From the NCBI GenBank assembly GCA_951406725.2, contig OX597830.1, positions 4,154,001 to 4,218,000 on the forward strand: a DNA stretch of 64,000 bases, in the 5' to 3' direction. Origin of the DNA: Octopus vulgaris (Eukaryota). A program made the translations under genes and the position numbers. This document shows positions 9,381 to 60,926 of the stretch, piece after piece. The notes beneath the pieces were generated by a model, which ran no database searches, was not told where the DNA came from, and saw nothing but the letters and a program-made list of their open reading frames with translations. Each line of letters opens with the position of its first letter. Position 1 is the first letter of the stretch.

Positions 9381-11651
9381 TTGAAATGACTGCATGGTCC
9401 TGGTAGAAATGTCTTTTAATCAGAGCCAATCTCACCCTAAATAACACCCTTTATTATTTTGTTGCCAAACACTAAACAGACAATAATGGAACTTAGTATA
9501 AACAAATTTATTTTATTAGTAAATGGAACATTGTTCAAAATATTTGTTAAAAGTTTCTTCAAACCTAATTAAAAATTTCAATAGCAATAATGATTGAAGC
9601 AGCTTTTTACATCATCAGGCAAATCCTTAGCATCAAGATTACAGTATGTCACCAACAGGGTGTAAAGCAATACTGAAGATCTTTATGTGGAGTAGTCGCC
9701 AGAAATAACAGCCAAATATCCCTCAAGTCACTCTACTTTTTAAAAAATGGATAAGAGTTTGCATTAAGTAGTCCTGCAAACAAAAGACATCAGTGGTCAT
9801 GGTTGGAACATCTATGATCAGACTGTCAAAACCAGTTTCTCTTTTACCCTCAGCATTATTACAATCATTTTAAAATTCAGTTTTCCATGCTTGCACAGGT
9901 CAGACAGAATTCAGTCAGGTAGGTGTTTTTTGTCCACATGCTCTTCTTCCTACTAGCTCTTACCTATTCCCAAATAAGGTAATATTTCTCCATGTCTGGA
10001 CATGTTTTCACAAAAGACTGAAAACAGTTTTCATCAACTAAATCTACTTACAAGGCCTATTTGACCTGGGGTGGGGGGTACAGTGGAAGATGTTGCTCAG
10101 AGTGTGGAACTGAACTTGAAACCACATAATTGAGAAACAAACATCTAAACTAAACAGCCATGTCTATGATTCACCACCAATCAGATATTTCAAGTTAATA
10201 TCAACTATGTCGTTATAAGCTCTGCTGTATAAATAACTAAACTTATATGAAGCACTGATTAAAAGTTTAATCCAAATTTAATGTAATAGTTTTTTTCTAA
10301 ATATGATTGTCCTCAGATTAATATTATTACAAACATTCTTCAGCTTGACATTTACAATCTAACTAATATGATCCATTTTATGCAAGAAATTAAACATAAA
10401 ATTGCCTAAAATATTCAGAATATAATCTATAAGAAATAAGCAATATTATATAAAATAATAAAAATTATACTTCATACTTAATGTTTAAAATTTCATATCA
10501 CTTCAAGCTATGAGCAGAAACATTTTTCCATCTATCAAGATACATTGATTTCGTTACAAAATCCAAAACACTATTCAATTCATGAATTTTATTCTTTTAG
10601 TTCTTTTTTTTTTAAATTTTGTGAAACTATAACTTTTATTTTATTATAATAACTGAAATAGGTTCTATGTAAAGAGTATTTTTAAAATGATGTTATAGTG
10701 ATAGCAACGATACTTTGATCAAAACGTTCAAGTTTGGTTGGTTACCAAACTTTTAAAATGACATAAAAAGTTGTAATATATTTTCAAATAATATGTTTAA
10801 ACATTTCTATGTTATTGCCACCATTTGAAGGACACTAAACACTCTTTTATATTCCTCTTCATCAACCTCCACCTAAATCAAACACTCTATAAGGTTTGTT
10901 CTTCCTTACATTCTAAAGCTTATAGAATTGAAATGATGTTATTGCAGTTGTCAGGTGGTGAGTTAGCAGAACCATTTGAATGCCAGAAAAATACTTTACA
11001 TTCAGAGTTCAAATTCAACAACAGTCAATTTCATCAGTCATTCTTTCAGGGGTCAATAAAAGATAAGGCAGAGTCAATGATTAGATTTGATGAAATTGAC
11101 CAAACCTGCTCACCTCAAATTTGCTGACCTAAATCAGAAGCTACAATATTAGTTTGTTATGATTTGTTGTTACAAACATTAAAGAAGTAACTTCAACTCA
11201 GTCAAACTGTAAGAAATGGTTTCCAAAATTCTCTTCTGTTCTATTTTATCATCTCAAAAAAAGTGTGTACGATATCAGGTAATGAAGTTGTAGATACATG
11301 ATACCTGGAAAAGATGGTTTCAATAAAAATGAAACAACTCTTATCATAGATCTGCTCAGTAAACAACACCAATATGATCACAATAACATCATGAGAATAT
11401 ACAATGTCAGACATTCTTATTGATTACAAATGAGTTTGTCAATGCCAGAGGATAGAATATTCAGGTACCAAGCACTGAATGAACCCTCATTATTTTAAAC
11501 AGAGATGTTATTTAAAAGGACAGCTTTAATCACTCACAATACATCCATGCTACAAATCTTGGCAAATTAGCAGTAATAGAGTTACTAATGGCACTAGTTT
11601 ATTTATACAGTAATATAGAAATAACATAATACTGTAGTAAAATAGTACATG

Positions 11652-11684
<33 letters not shown>

Positions 11685-11713
11685 CAAAAGAAAAACATGA
11701 TGCAAAGGATTTA

Positions 11714-11801
11714 GTGGTACATATGTTTCTGGCCTTTATTAGACAGTTTATATCAATGCATAATTGATGTAATATGTATGTCAATAGCCTTCTTCAGCCG
11801 T
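11714..11801 (-). ncRNA. Type I hammerhead ribozyme motif (inverted copy)
   Basis: Reverse complement reads cggCTGAAGA-aggc...gcca-GAAAC-atat-GTA-ccac; stem I is weakened relative to the plus copy. Confidence 0.55.
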
Positions 11802-12069
11802 GCACAATTACTACGTCAAGGACATGTATTACATTATAAGTTCGGGCGATTTACGTTGGGGATGCAAATCCTCATAGTCGTGTACAACAGAGCGAGGCAC
11901 CAAAATAAAAACAAACATTCTACATCGAGTGAAAAACGGGATGGACGCTTTGTTTTTGTTTTGGTGCCTCGCTCTGTTGTACACAACTATGAGGATTTGC
12001 ATTCCCAAAGTAAATCGTCTTTTTACCAAACTTATAATGTAATACATGTCCTTGGAGTAGTAATTGTGT

Positions 12070-12157
12070 GTGGCTGAAGAAGGCTACTGACATACATATT
12101 ACATCAATTATGCATTGATATAAACTGTCTAATAAAGGCCAGAAACATATGTACCAC
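12070..12157 (+). ncRNA. Type I hammerhead ribozyme motif with long stem II
   Basis: gtgg-CTGAAGA-[61 nt: ggc/gcc, gaca/tgtc, atcaat/attgat]-GAAAC-atat-GTA-ccac; palindromic stem III acatatgt; predicted cleavage after 12153. Confidence 0.7.
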
Positions 12158-12355
12158 TAAATCCTTTGCATCATGTTTTTATTTTGATAAATATACCCTA
12201 TCACCTACACCACTAACTGGCATATACAAGTGCTTACAATTATCAAGTATTCACCCTGAAATTTTATATATATATATATATATATCTTGGTATAGTAACT
12301 ACTAGCATTGCAATCTTTTTTATGATTAACCCTTGTTTATGAGCATAAATTGACA

Positions 12356-12755
12356 TGTCTGAGTGGCAAGAAGCTTGCTTCCCAACCGCATAGTTCTGTG
12401 TTCAGTCTCACTGTGTGACAGCTTGGGCAATTGTCTTCTATAACCCTGGGCCAACCAGAGCTTTGTGAGTGGATTTCATAGATGGAAACTGAAAGAAGCC
12501 CTTTGTATGTAAATATGTGTGTGTGTATGTGTGTTTGTCTTTATGGGGGTGTTTTTTTCCCACCACCACTTGACGACAGGTATTGGTGTGTTTACATCCC
12601 CATAACTTTGCAGTTTGGCAAAAGACTGATAAAATAAGTGCTAGGCTTTTAAAAAACATAATTTCTGGGGTCAATTCATTCAACTAAAAGTCTTCAAGGT
12701 GGTACTCCAGCATGGCCATTGTCTAATGATTAAAGCAAATAACAGATAAAAGATA
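12356..12755 (+). mobile_element. tRNA-derived SINE family 1 (octopus OK/OR-like)
   Basis: gttctgtgttcagtc B-box, gatggaaactgaaagaagccc core, ggtactccagcatggcc 3' part; homologous to 40418-40835. Confidence 0.75.
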
Positions 12756-18527: not shown

Positions 18528-19120
18528 TTAATCTTTTACTTGTTTCAGTCATTAGACTGCAGCCATGTGGGGCACCACTTTGGAAAATCTTTTAGTTGAA
18601 TGAATCAGTCCCAGCATTTTATTTTAAGCCTTGTTTTTATTTTATTAGTCTCTTCCCCCAAACTGCTAGGTTATGGGGGATGAAAACACACTGGTTGTGA
18701 AGTGATGTGTGGCGGATAAGCACAGACACAAAGACGCACATACACCTAGATATATATATGATGGGCTTCTTACAGTTTCCGTCCATCAAGTCCACTGAGA
18801 AGGCTTTGGTTGGCTGAGACTATAGTAAAAAACACTTGCTCAAGGGATTGTCATACAAGTAGCATTGTTCCTTTCTTGTCTTCTGTAAAAATACATCTGG
18901 ATTTAGGGAACCTATTACCATCCACAGAAGCATGTTAGAATTAGCGACAGGAAGAGCATCCAGCTGTAGAAAATCTACCTCAACAGATTCTGTCAGATCC
19001 ATGCAAGCATGAAAAAAATGGATTTTTCAAACAGTGGTATTGTTCAGCACCAGAGACAGACAGATCCTGGAACCATGTGGTTGCGAAGGAAGCTTCTTAC
19101 CAAACAGCCATGCCTGTACC
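18528..19120 (-). mobile_element. SINE family 1 interrupted by an insertion of about 210 bp (18850-19061)
   Basis: SINE 3' part at 18528-18848 and head resuming at gatcctggaaccatgtggttg (19063). Confidence 0.7.
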
Positions 19121-20454
19121 TATAATGTCAGATTTGCCAAGAGAAGTCTTGTTGATTAACTAGAACCATTGCCAAAGGGAAAATTTGTTTATCATTTACT
19201 TAATGTTACTGAATTTGAAGAAAGTATCAGCTTCTGTGAGTTTATGCGTTCAGGTATGAAGAAGTCGCCTATCAGATACATTAGGCTGTGTAATATACTT
19301 AAACAATGTGTTAAGAAGAATCTCTTATCTGCAACAATTCCTGGGAACTAATTTTTGGTGCGGCACACTTTTGCTTGAGTAGCATATTGCAATGCATACC
19401 TGCAAGTGACCTCATTCTTCAAATAATGGGCAATTATCTTCAATAATCTGTTTGAGCTGACATTAACACAGTCATTGTGCTCTGATGGATTGTTTCGTTT
19501 GAAAGGCTTTTCTCAAACACTCCTCTGCTCTTAACAATGTTTATCCAATACTTTTAACATCTCACAATAAATGACAAACAACCTTCTTTCTCTCTCTCTC
19601 TTTCACCCCCTCCTCTCTCTCTCTCTCTCTCTCTCACTCTCTTTCACTGACATACACTCACTTACACACACACACACACACGCACACACACAACTCATGA
19701 TGTCTGAAATACTTTCTTTACAGAAGGCCGAGGCAAAATCTGTGTTTAAAGTATCTTGCCAGTTTAAAGTCTGTCTCTGCTGCTGCACAACACTATTTGA
19801 AAAATCCATTTTCCCCATGCTTGCATGGATCTGACAGAATCTGTTGAGGTAGATTTTCTACAGCTGGATGCTCTTCCTGTTGCCAATTCTAAAATGCTTC
19901 TGTGCATGGTAATAGGTTCCCTAAACCCACATCTGTTTTTACAGAAGACAAGAAACGAACGACACTTCTTGTATGACTGACGCTCATTTACAGCTAACAT
20001 GCTATTTCAATACCTAAGAGACACACACACACACAAATGACAGGTTTCTCTCAGTTTCCATTAAATCTATTCACAAAGATTATCCTGGCCTAGGGATGCT
20101 GTGAAAGAAACTTGCCCAAGGCATCAGGCACCGGGGCTGACTGCAAAACTATGTGGTTGAGAAGAAGGAATTCATTGCATTTGAATGGATGCAAAGGTAT
20201 TTTCCCTCTTTTCTTTTTTTTACTGTTAAGTACCCAGTAATGTTGTGCATTAGACCCATTTATCTGCCAGCAAGGGAAACTAAAAGGAAACTGTTATCAA
20301 CTGAATGTTTGGTGAAAAAGCCATGTGATTGGGAGTCCTCTCCCACGGCATGGATGATGTTGGCTGGTGTCCTTTGTTATAGACATGGGTTTACCATTGC
20401 CTTGTGAGCGGAATTTAGTTGACAGAGGGCCATCATATATGTCATATATGTATC

Positions 20455-20974: not shown

Positions 20975-22760
20975 TTGCAAAAGTCCTAATATGTAGGAAG
21001 GCAGGCAAACTACAAATCCCTTCAGGTAGATGGCCCTGCTCAATCTGTAGAAAAGGTGTAGGTAGAAACTCTAGCTAAAACCTAGCTAAAACCAAAGTCC
21101 TAATAAGTAGGAAGGTAAACAAATCACAAACGCCTTCAGGTAGATGGCCCTACTCGATCTGTAGAAAAGGCGTAGGTAGAAACTCTATAAGATGTACCAA
21201 GTGTAAGTTATGGACACATAAGAGGCGCAGCAATGTCAAAGGAAGGCTAACTAAGAAGATAGTTTTTGCATGTGGCAGATGCTCAGGAGCAATAAACACT
21301 GAAAATGTGCAGAGAACAACTTCTGCCACATTCCAGGGAGAAAATCTAGAAGTAGTTGATAGCTTCCATTACCTAAGCGACCAAATCAGTAGCGGAGGAG
21401 GGTGCACTGAAAGTATAGCTGCTAGAATAAGAATGGCCTGGGCAAAGTTCAGAGAGCTCTTACCTCTGCTGGTGACAAAGGGCCTCTCGCTCAGAGTAAA
21501 AGGTAGACTGTATGACGCATGTGTATGAACAGCCATGCTACATGGCAGTGAAACATGGGCCGTGACTGCTGAGGATATGCGTAAGCCTGCAAGGAATGAA
21601 GCCAGCATGCTCCGATGGATGTATAATGTCAGTGTGCATACTTGACAGAGTGTTAGTGCCCTGAGAGAAAGGTTGGACCTAAGAAGCATCAGATGTGGTT
21701 TGCAAGAGAGACAATTGCGCTGGTATGGTCATGTGGCAAGAATGGATGTGGATAGCTGTGTGAAAAAGTGCCACACCCTAGCAGTTGAGGGAACCTGTGA
21801 AAGAGGTAGACCCAGGAAGACCTGGGATGAGGTGGTGAAGCATGACTTTCAAACATTGGGTCTCACCAAGGCAATGACTTGTGACCGGGACCTCTGGAAA
21901 TATGTGCTGCAGAAGACTCGACAAGTGCAAGTGTGACCATAACCTTGTGGCCTATGCTAGGGGTGTAACCAGTCCACTTATAGATGCCTTTTCTTCATTG
22001 GACACTAAACTCTGCTTGTGAAGACCAGTTGAGGCAAGTGAAATCGAAGTCAAAATCAAACTCGGTGACTGGCATCCGTTCCTAGTGGAGCACTAAGAGT
22101 ACCATACGAGTGAGATCGTTGCCTGAGCAACAAACTGGCCTTCGTGCCAGTGGCACGTTAAGCACACCATTCGAGCGTGATCATTACCGCATCGCCTTAC
22201 TAGCACTTGTGCTGGTGGTGAGGACGTCGTCAGTGCCGCTGGACTGGCTCTTGTGCTGGTGGCGAGGACATCGCCAGTGCGGCTGGACTGGCTCCTGTGC
22301 TGGTGGCAAGGACATCGCCAGTGCCGCTGGACTGGCTCCTGTGCAGGTGCGAGGACGTTGCCAGTGCCGCTGGACTGGCTCCTGTGCTGGTGGCGAGGAC
22401 GTCGCCAGTGCCGCTGGACTGGCTCCTGTGCTGGTGGCGAGGACGTCGCCAGTGCCGCTGGACTGGCTCCTGTGCTGGTGGCGAAGACGTTGCCAGTGCT
22501 GCTGGACTGGCTCCTGTGCTGGTGGCATGTAAAAAGTACCACTTGGACGTGGTCATTGCCAGTAACACCAAACTGGCCCTTGTGCCGGTGGCACATAAAA
22601 GCACCCACTACACTCTCAGAGTGGTTGGCATTAGGAAGGGCATCCAGCTGTAGAAACTCTGCCAGAACAGATCGGAATCTGGTTTGCCAAACTTCAGTCA
22701 AATCGTCCAACCCATGCTAGAATGGAAAGCGGACGTTAAATGATGATGATGATGATGATG
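20975..22760 (+). mobile_element. 5'-truncated RTE-clade LINE: ORF 3' end, 3'UTR with minisatellite and (GAT)n tail
   Basis: LEVVDSFHYL...ARIRMAWAKFRELLPLL...LRWYGHVARMD...RGRPRKTW motifs with stops; ends ggaaagcggacgttaaatgatgatgat. Confidence 0.9.
22209..22526 (+). repeat. 44-bp GC-rich minisatellite, about 7.2 copies, in the RTE 3'UTR
   Basis: Unit gtgctggtggcgaggacgtcgccagtgccgctggactggctcct starting at 22209, 22253, 22297, 22341, 22384, 22428 and 22472. Confidence 0.95.
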
Positions 22761-30525: not shown

Positions 30526-30567
<42 letters not shown>

Positions 30568-30686
30568 CATTACAGATATAGGGTAAAGAATTATTAATTT
30601 AATAAATTAATAAATTTACCAAGTAGTTTCGGTATGGAAAAGAGCCATATTCGGTAAAAACTTATACAAAAAGTTTTTTATATAAT

Positions 30687-30798
30687 TATAACAATAATTA
30701 AGGGTTTAGCAACAAGTTGCTTCACCACATACCGAAAATTTAGAAATTTTCGGTATGTGGTGAAGCAGCTTGTTGCTAAGCCCTTAATTATTGTTATA
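30687..30798. repeat. Near-perfect palindrome, 55-bp arms, 2-nt loop
   Basis: tataacaataattaagggtttagc...accgaaaattt-ag-aaattttcggt...gcccttaattattgttata; 2 mismatches. Confidence 0.95.
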
Positions 30799-30800
30799 TA

Positions 30801-31050
30801 TATATATAAAATTAGAAAAAAAAACACTTTTTATCAATTCAAAATGAACAATTAAATTACACCATCTAGAAAATTACATATAATAGAAAATTATATACGT
30901 TTTTATTATTATTTCTGCAATTTACTTAATCTTTACATTTTATTGTTATTTTAATTTTAACTTTTCTATTATATGTAATTTTCTAGATGGTGTAATTTAA
31001 TTGTTCATTTTGAATTGATAAAAAGTGTTTTTTTTCTAATTTTATATATA
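30801..31050. repeat. Inverted repeat, arms about 90 bp, spacer about 70 nt
   Basis: 30801-30890 is the reverse complement of 30962-31050. Confidence 0.95.
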
Positions 31051-31477
31051 TATATTATATTGTGTGAAATTTGATTTAGTATTTCTAAATTGAATTTTTT
31101 TTTTCCTTGTAAGTTTGGATTTTATTCCCTCAAATAATAAATGTATATATATACATGTACATATATAAATCAGGAAAAATCAGGAGGTATGTGAGAGGTG
31201 GATATATTTATTTAACCACTTGATATCTATAAGATTATGGCATTATACTCCTCAGAAAGGGATTACTCTGTGGTATGACAGCCGGGTACACCGAAGAAGG
31301 TGTTCATGATAGTCACGGGATTCTAGGGATCCATCTATTACACTGCATATTCATGTATGTGTATGTGTGTACATGTGTATATGTATATATATATATATGT
31401 TTGTGTGTATGTGTGTGTGTATTTTATATGTATATGTATGTATATATATGTGTATATATGAATATGTGTATGAATAT

Positions 31478-32108
31478 ATCATCATTTAACGTCCACTCTC
31501 CATGCTGGCATGGGTTAGATGGTTTGACTGGAGCTGATGAGCTGCACCAGGTTCCAGTCTGATTTGGCATGGTTTCTACAGCTGCATGCCTTTCCTAATG
31601 CCAACCACTCCAGGTGTGCAACAGGTGCTTTTATGTGCCAATGGCACAGGTGTGATTTACGTGGTACCATCAACGACCACAACTACAATGCCCAGGTGTC
31701 ATTTACATGACACCAGCAATGACCACAGCTATGATGCATGGCTGCCATTCACATGATCACCACTACCTTTTCCTTTGGCTTGGCAATTCTTCTCATACTC
31801 AGCATATCGCCAGAAGTCTCAGTCACTTGTCATCCCACCAAGAGACCCAATATCTGAAGATTATGTTCCAACACCTCCTTCCATGTCTTCCTAGGTCTAC
31901 CTCTAGCACAGTTTCCCCCCACAGTTAGAGATTAGCACTTCTTTACACAGCTGTCCTCATCCATCTGTATCACATGACCATACCAACGCAGTTGTCTCTC
32001 TTGTACACCATATCTGATTCTTCTTGTGCCCAGCTTTTCTTTCAAGACACTTACACTCTGTTGTACATGCACACTGACATTGTACATCCAGCAAAACACA
32101 CCAGCTTC
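31478..32108 (-). mobile_element. 5'-truncated RTE LINE
   Basis: catcatttaacgtcc tail at left; 31870-32108 is the reverse of the RCGVQERQLRWYGHV...RGRPRKTW region. Confidence 0.85.
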
Positions 32109-32168
32109 ATATATATATATATATATGCATAAGAATGTGCATTGTCCGTTTAATTAAAAAGTTCTATA

Positions 32169-32256
32169 TGTGGCTGAAGATTGCTCGACATTTTAAAACT
32201 GATGTAATACTTACAGTGTTTAATAAAATAAAGTAGCATGAAACAATTGTATTACA
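32169..32256 (+). ncRNA. Type I hammerhead ribozyme motif with long stem II
   Basis: tgtgg-CTGAAGA-[59 nt: tgct/agca, tgtaa/ttaca]-GAAAC-aatt-GTA-ttaca inside a (TA)n-flanked insert at 32126-32290. Confidence 0.7.
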
Positions 32257-33664
32257 CTACCTTGGCTATCCTTGTTGCCTATTTTGATTATGCATATAAA
32301 TGTATATGCATATATATACATACATGCATATATATATATATATATTACTATTTCAAAACAGGTCAACATTAGATGTCCCAATATGAAGATCTTTTATGTT
32401 CTAGAATTTCTGTGAATGAAGAAAAATTTGTGGTAAACAGAACATATTTGATAGTCATTCTAACAGTATATTGCGAGTCTTCATTAGTCAAGCTATGAAT
32501 ATTATCTCGAGATAAATAATAAAACATTAATAAATTGCTATGTAAGATGTGTTTGTGTTAAACAAAAGGACAGGAGAATAGAGTTTTGAGCGCAATGTAT
32601 CTGAAATCTGATAAAAACCATAAAATCAGACCAATAATGTAAGAGTAATTCATAGAACTCTTCTAGCTTGATAAACGGCAATCGAATAAAGCAGCAAAGT
32701 GCAGGAACTCATAGTCATCAAAACTATAATGAAAAAGTCCAAATAAATTTACAAGTTTGAGCGAATAAATTAAAATAACATAGAAAGAAGAATAAATCTA
32801 TGTAAATGTGTTTGACCTTCCACTATGTTCCCCTCCTCTCTTTCATATTTTTCACTAAATCTTTTTTTCTTTTTTTCACCCTCATCAATTTTCTCTGTCT
32901 GCAGCAAAATTGATAGATATAGTTCATGAGGATGATTTTTTGCATAATAATCTTTAGTTGTATGTCTCCTTGTTTGTTTATTTTATAACTTACAAGACAG
33001 ACACAATATTAAAATCAATTCATTGAAAAAAAAAAAAAAAAATTATTGTTTCTAAATTGATTGAAAGATGAATTCCATTAGAAAAAGAAAATGACAGAAC
33101 ATTATTTCTTTGGTATTGGAAGAAAAGATGAGTGTAACATCTTTTTAGACGGTCTTCATTAGAAGTCTTTCTTGCAGAAAATATTCAATAAATATGAGCT
33201 GATCCTTTCTATAATGGAGAATGATAATATTTTTTCCTGTATTTTGTAGATTGTGAATAATGCAAAATGTATTACTAATAAACACAATTACAAATTACTT
33301 TATATGTTTGTTAATTATTGAATTTCCAGTATCTTTAATTAAATTTCAGTAGGTAGTGTAATGATGAAGCAAAAAGTATAATTCTGTAATGTGAAATGAA
33401 GAATTAGCTAATGTATTTCCATAAAATTCTTTAATTTAAGTCTGTTTTTCAATGTTTCCATGAGCTGGGTGAGACTTCAACATTGCATCTTGGCACTTGT
33501 CAAGGTCTGTCATCATCCTCTTTGTTAGGTTCACCATCCTCAACTCTTCTTCCAATATTTTCTTTCATATTCTTCTTGTGCAGCCAACTCTTATTATTCT
33601 ATGTCTGAAAGAAAGATAATTTTCATATCAGTATATATCATCATCTTAATAATAATAATAATAA

Positions 33665-34142
33665 TCATCATCATCATCATCATTTAGCGTCCGTTTTCCA
33701 TGCTAGCATGGGTTGGACGGTTCAACTGGGGTCTGTGAAGCTGGAAGGCTTCATCAGGCCCAGTCAGATCTGGCAGTGTTTCTACGGCTGGATGCCCTTC
33801 CTAATGCCAACCACTCCGTGAGTGTAGTGGGTGCTTTTTACGTGCCTCCCGCACAGGTGCCAGACAGAGCTGGCAAACGGCCACGAACAGATGGTGCTTT
33901 TACGTGTCACCGGCACGGGGGCCAGGCGAGGCTGGCAACAGACACAAACGGATGGTGCTTTTACGTGCCACCAGCACGGGGGCCAGACAGAGCTGGCAAA
34001 CGGCCACGAGCGGATGGTGCTTTTACGTGTCACCGGCACGGGGGCCAGGCGAGGCTGGCAACGAACACGAATGGATGGTGCTTTTATGTGCCATCAACAC
34101 GGGGGCCAGACAGAGCTGGCAAACGGCCACGAACGGATGGAG
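33665..34142 (-). mobile_element. RTE 3'UTR/tail with an alternating tandem array of about 62 bp
   Basis: (CAT)n-ttagcgtccgttttccatgctagcatggg tail; units at 33831, 33894, 33955, 34017 and 34078. Confidence 0.85.
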
Positions 34143-58934: not shown

Positions 58935-60926
58935 ATGCCACAGACTGTGGATGGTACAAAGTCCCTTCCAGACCTAGAGTTACGTGGTGGTGGTGGAATA
59001 GTACAGTAGACAAAGAAACAGGCCTGGAAAGCCTGGAGGGATGGGGGTAGCAGGGAACTGTACCAGGTAGCCAAAAGGGAGGCTGGGTGGCAGGTATACA
59101 TAGCCAAGGGTGAAGCAGAAAAGAAGAAGTTTGCCAATGTCCAGCGACGTGAGGACCAAAGAATTGAGGTATTTCGGATTGCAAGACAGTGTGTGAGAGA
59201 AAATAGTGATGTTACAGGAGAGAAATGCATCCGCATGGATGATGGTGCACTTGCTTTCAATGTTTCTGAAAAGAAAAAGGCTTGGAGAAGCCATTATGAG
59301 AGACTGCTGAATGTGGAGAATGAATGGGAGGAGGAGAGCCTGCCAAATGTTGACCCAGTAGAGGGACCAGCTATCCAAATAGACAGCTCCCTAGTAGTTA
59401 AGGCAATTAAGGGTATGAAAAGCCCCATGCCCCATGCCCATCAGGAATCACTGCTGAGATGCTTGAAACATCTGGTGGTGTGGGCTATGGCCTAGTCACC
59501 CGCACTGTAAACCAGGTAGTTTATAATGGAGTCATACCCAATGACTGGCGTAGCAGCACCATAGTCAACTGCTACAAGGATAAAGGTGATGCTCTAGATA
59601 GAAATAACTACAGGGGTATTAAACTGTTGGATCAGGCGATGAAGATCACAGAGAGGGTCATAGCCCATCTCATTAGGGAGAGAATTTGCTTAGATGAGAT
59701 GCAGTTCAGTTTTGTGCCAGGTAGGTAGAAGCACCACTGATGCCATATTCCTGGTTCGACAACTGCAGGAGAAATACCTAGCTAAAGATAAACCCCTCTA
59801 CATAGCTTTCGTGGACTTGGAGAAAGCCTTTGACAGGGCCCCTCGAACTCTTTTCTGGTGGGCGATGCGGAAACTGGAGACTGATGAATGGTTAATAAGG
59901 GCTGTACAGGCCCTATACAGAGAGGCTGTCAGCACAGTTAGGATTGACAATGAGTATAGTGAAGAATTCCGGGTAGAAGTAGGTGTCCACCAAGGTTCAG
60001 CCCTCAGTCTCCTTTTATTCATCATAGTCCTCCAGGCAATATCAGAGGAATTCAAGACGTGTTGTCCCTGGGAGCTCCTCTATGCTGATGACTGATGGCT
60101 GTCATAGCAGAATCACTACTGGAACTAGAAAAGAAATTTCGGGTGTGGAAGTAAATGTAGCAAAGACCAAAGTTATAGTAAGCAGAAAGGTGAACTCATC
60201 ACCTCCCCACCCCGGGCAGGTGGCTCTGCTCGATCTGTAGGAAAGGTGTAGGTAGAAAATCCATAAGATGTACCCAGTGTAAGCTATGGACACATAAGAG
60301 GTGCACAAACATCAAAGGAAAATTAACTGATAAGATAGCTTTCACGTGCGGCAGATGCACAGGGGCAATAGACACCACAGATACTCAAAAAACAGATTCC
60401 ATCACACTTCAGGGGAAAAAACTAGAAGTAGTTGATAGTTTCTGCTACCTTGGTGACCAAGTTAGTAGTGGAGGTGGATGTTCAGAGAGTGTCACCACCA
60501 GAATACGAATAGCCTGGGCAAAGTTTCGAAAGCTCCTACCCCTACTGGTGACAAAGGGTCTCTCGCTCAGAGTGAAAGGTAGATTGTGTGATGCATGTGT
60601 GCGCACTGCTATGCTTCACGGTAGTGAAACATGGGCTGTGACTGCAGAGGACATGCATAGACTTGAAAGAAATGAAGCTAGCATGATCTGCTGGATGTGT
60701 AATGCCAGTGTGCACACACGACAGAGTGTAAGCACCCTGAGAGAAATGCTGGATATAAGAAGCATCAGATGTGGTGTGCAAGAGAGACGTTTGTGCTGGT
60801 ATGGTCATGTACTGCAGATGGATGAGGAGAGATGTGTGAAGAAGTGCCACTCCCAAACAGTTGAAGGTATCTGGGGGAGAGGTAGACCCAGGAAAACGGA
60901 TGTTAAACGATGATGATGATGATGAT
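58935..60926 (+). mobile_element. 5'-truncated RTE-clade LINE with reverse transcriptase pseudogene
   Basis: PNDWRSSTIVNCYKDKGDALDRNNYRGIKLL, FVDLEKAFDR, GVHQGSALS, ELLYADD, VDSFCYLG, RGRPRKT; several frameshifts; (GAT)n tail. Confidence 0.95.

Follow-up and report, generated by a model that had tools for sequence, protein, structure and literature searches.

Inverted, 5'-truncated PLE copies with one-sided tails are described in PMC8557442, together with the (TA)n-targeting Hydra clade, which has a member in Octopus bimaculoides. According to this source, almost all Hydra families target (TA)n, and Neptune and Naiad elements also favour such sites. Penelope-13_HM is presented there as having an inverted 5'-truncated copy with hammerhead ribozymes (HHRs) on both strands, and the way in which PLEs form inverted structures is listed as an open question. 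According to our count of the HHR table of the paper, the core and helix II are separated by a U.U mismatch in 14 of 25 Hydra families, loop II has 3-10 nt in all 25 and an A.A mismatch occurs in none of those tabulated. The minimal PLE HHRs reported by Cervera and De la Pena (2014, PMC4209133) have a palindromic helix III, are inactive as monomers and weak as dimers, and include dual HHRs on opposite strands located 100-700 bp apart. A PLE protein that cuts AT-rich DNA and extends both strands is reported in PMC11167929, with a protein-dependent HHR and two RT start sites bracketing a tail of 30-40 bp.

As far as the available text of these sources goes, (TA)n targeting, inverted truncated copies, two-strand cleavage and extension and two tail-defining RT start sites are all published (PMC8557442, PMC11167929), and opposite-strand HHR pairs are known as well (PMC4209133). 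The octopus locus presented here is mainly a clean example, since its layout is known. It carries both 3' end classes on opposite arms of one insertion, and two-ended priming can be tested by counting ends in foldbacks genome-wide.

Anatomy of the foldback

The window, i.e., the whole 64,000-nt stretch of Octopus vulgaris DNA that was analysed, is AT-rich (GC 28-45% in 2-kb bins), has dense microsatellites and dispersed repeats and contains RT-bearing LINE-like fragments. The first-pass annotation had proposed in it a foldback with two outward-facing hammerheads, built of arms of about 235 bp around a 33-nt loop, with the right copy running about 75 nt further up to (TA)n. This structure proved to be real, as the arms, the spacer and both HHR motifs were found, and the one-sided extension measured 76 nt. 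The following features were assigned.

11657-11684, no strand: left microsatellite (AT)14, the left half of the target site
11683-11915, minus strand: left arm, putative PLE 3' end, 5'-truncated and without the tail, its terminus 31 nt past the HHR
11714-11801, minus strand: left type I HHR with an intact core and a helix I of 2 bp (11716-11799), predicted cut after 11718
11916-11948, no strand: unpaired spacer of 33 nt
11949-12188, plus strand: right arm, putative PLE 3' end, 5'-truncated, extending to the short terminus, which lies 31 nt past the HHR
12070-12157, plus strand: right type I HHR, predicted cut after 12153
12070-12073 with 12154-12157, plus strand: helix I of the right HHR, 4 bp
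12074-12080, plus strand: core CUGAAGA of the right HHR
12081 with 12141, plus strand: A.A mismatch of the right HHR
12082-12085 with 12137-12140, plus strand: helix II of the right HHR, 4 bp, closing a 51-nt insert
12131-12136, plus strand: AATAAA hexamer, part of the helix II insert, 17 nt before the predicted scissile bond
12142-12145, plus strand: GAAA of the right HHR
12145-12152, plus strand: helix III of the right HHR, an 8-nt palindrome, with a UA cleavage site
12189-12264, plus strand: one-sided extension (putative PLE tail) of 76 nt, its end 107 nt past the HHR
12265-12284, no strand: right microsatellite (TA)10, the right half of the target site

In a global alignment, the left and right arms differed by 12 substitutions and one 7-nt indel; the last two gap columns were end effects and were excluded from this count. 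Because 12 sites and an indel distinguish the arms, an assembly artefact was ruled out as the source of the foldback. The differences comprised 11 events in the inner half and 2 in the outer half (Fisher p = 0.019, a post hoc test), with only 2 differing sites in the outer 115 alignment columns. The 33-nt spacer would be the overhang of the less truncated copy, and either strand could be its origin. A BLAST search of the 64-kb window revealed no second copy of the foldback and no significant match of the tail or the spacer elsewhere.

The string ACCCT occurs twice in the tail. It was also noticed at 30566-30585 and 30778-30795, in both cases 9-17 nt away from (TA)n, and near the end of Hydra-1_Crog. 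Its position near (TA)n may mark an RT start or an endonuclease site, or may be due to chance.

Hammerhead motifs and a solitary relative

Both HHR motifs of the first-pass annotation, at 12070-12157 (+) and 11714-11801 (-), were present. The left one, in which helix I pairs over 2 bp only, is probably impaired. The sequences starting at 12070 and 32169 each contain the CUGANGA, GAAA and UH elements together with helices I-III and end in helix I, as is characteristic of type I HHRs. A descriptor with a helix I of at least 4 bp gave two matches in the window, namely these two sites. The same descriptor, written after the motif had been seen, was applied to 500 dinucleotide-preserving shuffles and gave a mean of 0.004 matches, with one match in 2 of 500 and two matches in 0 of 500.

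Rfam gave no match in the entire window at the gathering threshold. At E<=10, 16 matches were obtained for region 11500-12400 and none of them was a hammerhead; the weak matches to miRNA families were far under the gathering scores, reflected the hairpin only and were rejected. The G10.1-C11.1 pair adjoining the core was absent, and the core was followed by a 1x1 mismatch, A.A in the foldback or U.U in the copy at 32126-32288, and then by helix II.

The latter copy is solitary and provided a diverged relative of the foldback arms.

32126-32288, plus strand: solitary, diverged PLE-like 3' end of about 160 nt, ending 33 nt past the HHR in the common terminal motif
32169-32256, plus strand: third type I HHR, 88 nt, predicted cut after 32251

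It is flanked by (TA)8 (32110-32125) on the left and by a TA-rich tract (32289-32345) on the right, and insertion into (TA)n was found at both loci. The copy borders on a LINE-like repeat fragment whose end is near 32090. In its HHR, helix I has 5 bp including two G-U pairs, the mismatch is U.U and helix II closes an insert of 49 nt. The palindrome is also 8 nt long, its sequence is unlike that of the foldback, and the core is common to both.

In the alignment of the three sequences, 34 of 36 cells were paired, both unpaired cells being located in helix I of the left copy, and slid controls showed 26-50% pairing. Changes on both sides were detected in 2 of 12 pairs, one in helix II and one in the palindrome (helix III). 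The shuffle control for covariation was not significant (60/500), which is expected because only two independent families were compared. An nhmmer search of the window with the three-sequence profile returned the three input sites alone, the next best match having an E value of 1.1.

The three copies have a terminal motif in common, located 31, 31 and 33 nt past the HHR. The left arm had previously been taken for a truncated copy. Since the solitary copy ends 33 nt past its HHR, the terminus of the left arm is the normal one and the tail of the right arm is an addition. The left arm is thus not 3'-truncated and finishes in the terminal motif that also closes the solitary copy at 32288. At 11683, 12188 and 32288, this motif is similar to the final bases of the consensi of Naiad_Obim and Naiad_Ovul.

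Probable relationship to described PLEs

The foldback is best read as two 5'-truncated PLE 3' ends placed head-to-head in (TA)n. Among the traits of PLEs, an HHR in the 3' pLTR with a palindromic helix III was found, as were 5' truncation, an inverted adjacent copy and a tail at one end, the tail being 76 nt long and not 30-40. The earlier preference for a PLE-type inverted insertion over a MITE is supported by the diverged solitary homologue, whose HHR covaries and whose 3' end is the same. Further support comes from the insertion into (TA)n, from the tail on one side only and from end distances as in the Hydra consensi. In 24 published Hydra consensi, some of them marked incomplete, the end lies 26-43 nt past the HHR in 10 and 104-149 nt in 9, and the remaining 5 fall outside both classes (4 between them and 1 beyond). 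Penelope-18_HMa, with its HHR listed at the 5' end, was dropped from this set, and two families had no HHR row. The foldback ends, 31 and 107 nt past the HHR, correspond to both main Hydra end classes, one per arm.

PLEs are recognised by an ORF for a telomerase-like RT and a GIY-YIG endonuclease. No Pfam match was obtained in the four plus-strand frames of the locus that the coding scan covered; such absence is expected for a 5'-truncated remnant. As no ORF evidence was found at the locus, membership in PLEs rests on non-coding features. The same features suggest that the clade is probably Hydra-like, the likely affiliation being one of resemblance, as Hydra proper is recognised by the RT motifs RWK and DKT and by an endonuclease without CCHH. 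A 62-codon open frame running through the HHR and the tail looked by eye faintly like a Hydra N-terminus. It has no Met and no Pfam match, and a search of 1.84 billion proteins returned a single match (E 5e-4) without a passing stretch, to a protein lacking an RT or GIY-YIG domain; it was therefore rejected as a coding remnant.

Motif searches of published PLE consensi, in which FASTA line breaks can hide matches, gave no matching family. Identity with Hydra-1_Obim, Naiad_Obim or Naiad_Ovul was rejected by eye and by motif search of the available consensi. The family pattern had no match in prokaryotic genomes, as expected, and a sigma-70 scan (4 matches versus a background of 5.7) was irrelevant here.

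The likeness to the Hydra clade, as far as that clade is documented in the available text, comprises the (TA)n target, a type I HHR near the 3' end, a 1x1 mismatch between the core and helix II, and ends about 30-40 or 105-150 nt past the HHR; the U.U form of the mismatch is common to the 14 of 25 families and the solitary copy. The octopus motifs differ from it in an insert of 49-51 nt in place of a loop II of 3-10 nt and, in the foldback copies, in the A.A mismatch. The HHR sequence of Hydra-1_Obim is unlike that of the octopus foldback. Penelope-13_HM resembles the foldback in its inverted 5'-truncated copy with HHRs on both strands.

The minimal PLE HHRs (PMC4209133) have in common with the octopus motifs CUGANGA with an extra nucleotide, a short helix I, a palindromic helix III implying dimer cleavage and an occurrence mostly as solitary copies of truncated PLEs, opposite-strand pairs being also known. 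They carry, however, G10.1-C11.1 directly before GAAA and short loops, whereas in the foldback and solitary HHRs this position is occupied by a mismatch or an extra base, and the insert is long. The PAc Poseidon system (PMC11167929) is similar in its AT-rich target, in the cleavage and extension of both strands, in two RT start sites yielding copies with or without a tail and in the protein-assisted HHR. It differs in that its tail is 30-40 bp long and lies within the ORF start, whereas the tail of the foldback has 76 nt and no coding match. A precedent for the long insert is the long loop II (35 and 29 nt) described for two PLE-X families of Selaginella (PMC8557442); PLE-X, in contrast, targets 28S rDNA and occurs in plants. 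A looser precedent is found in some Naiad elements with HHR_half_core, in which the core halves are 35-50 nt apart, and Naiad_Ovul is so marked (PMC8557442); the octopus Naiad consensi also have a similar terminal motif next to (TA)n. Nevertheless, canonical HHR helices are absent from Naiad and all three are present here, and by eye the 3' similarity to Naiad_Obim and Naiad_Ovul is limited to the last few bases.

Predicted folding of the transcripts

The full foldback was predicted to fold at about -381 kcal/mol, and forcing helices I and II within it cost 124.0 kcal/mol on the plus strand and 123.5 kcal/mol on the minus strand. All folding scores are nearest-neighbour energies without tertiary contacts, Mg2+ or protein. 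With outward-facing motifs, transcription of either strand produces the antisense arm first. In the co-transcriptional fold up to position 12160, when the HHR is complete, 200 of 212 right-arm bases were already paired to the left arm. When editing was simulated by converting 20-50% of the adenosines outside the core and helices to G or to an unpairable base, the gap amounted to 49-127 kcal/mol in 24 of 24 cases.

It had been proposed that a transcript could partition between self-cleavage and a long hairpin. Within the limits of nearest-neighbour folding, this idea fails on both thermodynamic and kinetic grounds: the hairpin is favoured by about 124 kcal/mol for both strands, and transcription reaches the antisense arm before the HHR. 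Simulated editing of up to 50% of the adenosines outside the core and helices did not rescue it, the gap staying at least 49 kcal/mol.

For the free right arm, the folding model gave a monomer P(HHR) of about 2e-4. The right-arm dimer with both HHRs formed scored -33.0 kcal/mol versus -35.0 for the free cofold and -29.8 for two monomers; the corresponding values for the solitary family were -23.6, -26.2 and -19.6 kcal/mol. In single-arm transcripts starting from 11810 to 12070, the formation of an alternative 5' hairpin left helices I and II disfavoured by 6.7-13.5 kcal/mol. For a free arm, the HHR fold is thus predicted in the dimer only. If the locus is transcribed, its read-through transcript would be a plausible ADAR or Dicer substrate. 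High hyper-editing and dsRNA potential are reported for octopus in PMC5625713, and Penelope is heavily edited in a lizard according to the same source. Should foldbacks of this kind be common, they would increase the dsRNA load for ADAR and would not serve as ribozyme switches.

Origin of the locus and alternative explanations

The locus is likely a dead by-product of PLE integration by two-ended priming in (TA)n, with the arms joined head-to-head. According to this model, a PLE endonuclease/RT, probably from a Hydra-like family, would cut a (TA)n tract and both DNA ends would prime reverse transcription on the element RNA. The cDNA of the left arm would start at the proximal site, 31 nt past the HHR, and that of the right arm at the distal site, 107 nt past the HHR, thereby including the tail. 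Both cDNAs would stall about 115-155 nt upstream of the HHR and would then be joined head-to-head. In the parent element, the HHR would most likely cleave only as a dimer, via the 8-nt palindromic helix III. Read-through RNA of the locus would zip into a hairpin of about 230 bp; as this would bury the ribozyme, the product would be ordinary repeat-derived dsRNA and not a switch.

A single cDNA that snapped back or switched template on itself would also yield inverted arms, in this case from one RNA and identical at insertion. The spacer is short (33 nt), the outer 115 columns differ at 2 sites only and inverted truncated copies are common in PLEs whatever the mechanism (PMC8557442), all of which agrees with such an origin. 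Neutral ageing predicts, however, an even spread of differences and not 11 inner versus 2 outer events (p = 0.019), and the two distinct 3' end lengths fit two priming events. For the inner-half clustering, two sister templates are a better explanation than a single cDNA that snapped back, although gene conversion could mimic it. We infer that two different template RNAs were used and consider the single-cDNA origin quite improbable. A DNA transposon of the MITE or foldback type, with terminal inverted repeats of about 230 bp, TA-repeat targeting and a PLE end captured once, seems very improbable. The TA on both sides could mask a TA target duplication, the TSD being unreadable because the target is (TA)n, and further (TA)n-flanked foldbacks without an HHR exist at 30674-30811 and 30796-31055. 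Yet the 76-nt extension lies outside the repeat and on the right side only, so that the inverted repeats are not at both termini; moreover, a non-inverted solitary relative has the same terminus and a second foldback copy is absent from the 64 kb.

Even less probable is a view of the arms as non-autonomous non-LTR retrozyme monomers and not as truncated ends of a coding PLE. Such a view would accommodate the lack of an ORF in the plus-strand frames scanned, and animal retrozymes, according to the available text of a preprint (bioRxiv 10.64898/2026.07.22.740005), have type I HHRs, occur as monomers and were proposed to be PLE derivatives. Retrozymes are nonetheless defined by head-to-tail tandem units, a tandem array is absent at both loci, and two end classes together with a tail are characteristic of PLEs. 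The least probable explanation is a selected RNA device whose transcript partitions between self-cleavage and dsRNA processing. Both cores are intact, the HHR-bearing halves of the arms are nearly identical and the hyper-editing and dsRNA potential of octopus are high (PMC5625713), which would suit such a device. Against it stand the predicted advantage of the hairpin (124 kcal/mol) and its co-transcriptional formation, the gap of at least 49 kcal/mol in all 24 editing simulations, the fact that editing also strikes five core adenosines and the 2-bp helix I of the left copy. Two-ended priming on PLE RNA is the preferred reading of the locus.

The long helix II insert

The insert closed by helix II, 51 nt in the foldback and 49 nt in the solitary copy, is weakly structured. 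In isolation, it folded in both families as an imperfect extension of helix II; since 26 and 27 of 200 shuffles folded equally well (z about -1), it is not claimed as a conserved structure. The AATAAA hexamer precedes the predicted cut by 17 nt in the foldback family and by 19 nt in the solitary family. Its background is about 0.07 per stretch of such size and the copies are related, so it is regarded as a lead only.

The insert of about 50 nt, present in both families and missed by Rfam, may be a novelty. As an HHR with such an insert, kept in two diverged families, went unseen by Rfam in this window, the numbers of ribozymes counted in such genomes may be too low. No published description of a long-insert HHR family or subtype was found in the literature on octopus or cephalopod hammerheads and retrotransposons, which was available mostly as abstracts. 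PLE hammerhead variants have reportedly been treated by Lunse et al., and this may bear on the novelty of the long-insert HHR. PLEs constitute 6.83% of the O. vulgaris genome and comprise 190 families according to PMC13282606, the accessible part of which does not mention ribozymes; the long-insert family may already be present, unlabelled, in its repeat library.

It is conceivable, but rather unlikely, that these motifs represent an undescribed functional long-helix-II HHR subtype in cephalopod PLEs, in which the insert of about 50 nt with AAUAAA 17-19 nt before the scissile bond would bring host polyadenylation and dimer-dependent self-cleavage to nearly one 3' site. If true, long-insert motifs would evade Rfam and short-spacer descriptors, and PLE families listed as HHR-less or half-core may have working ribozymes. 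In that case, loci such as the foldback would also document in the genome that priming took place from both ends, at two RT start sites about 75 nt apart.

Other repeats in the window

Two adjacent foldbacks, at 30674-30811 and 30796-31055, lie between TA tracts, and scans found no HHR core in them; they are possibly head-to-head ends of other (TA)n-targeting elements. Visual inspection of 30566-30665 (-), adjoining (TA)17, showed GAAA and two stems, one of 6 bp resembling helix I and a helix II of 5 bp, but no CUGA. This half-hammerhead is perhaps a decayed PLE end.

Degenerate LINE-like ORF fragments are located at 21079-21936 and about 59000-60913, and both look RTE-like. Pfam matches were obtained to RVT_1 at 59694-60092, with an E value of 4e-12, and to a PHD finger at 60194-60910. 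At 18850-19977, two inverted copies of about 210 bp with 90% identity span about 1.1 kb; the pair is not TA-flanked and is a candidate element with terminal inverted repeats. GC-rich tandem arrays with periods of 44 and 61/123 were observed at 22208-22526 and 33830-34140 within a dispersed repeat family.
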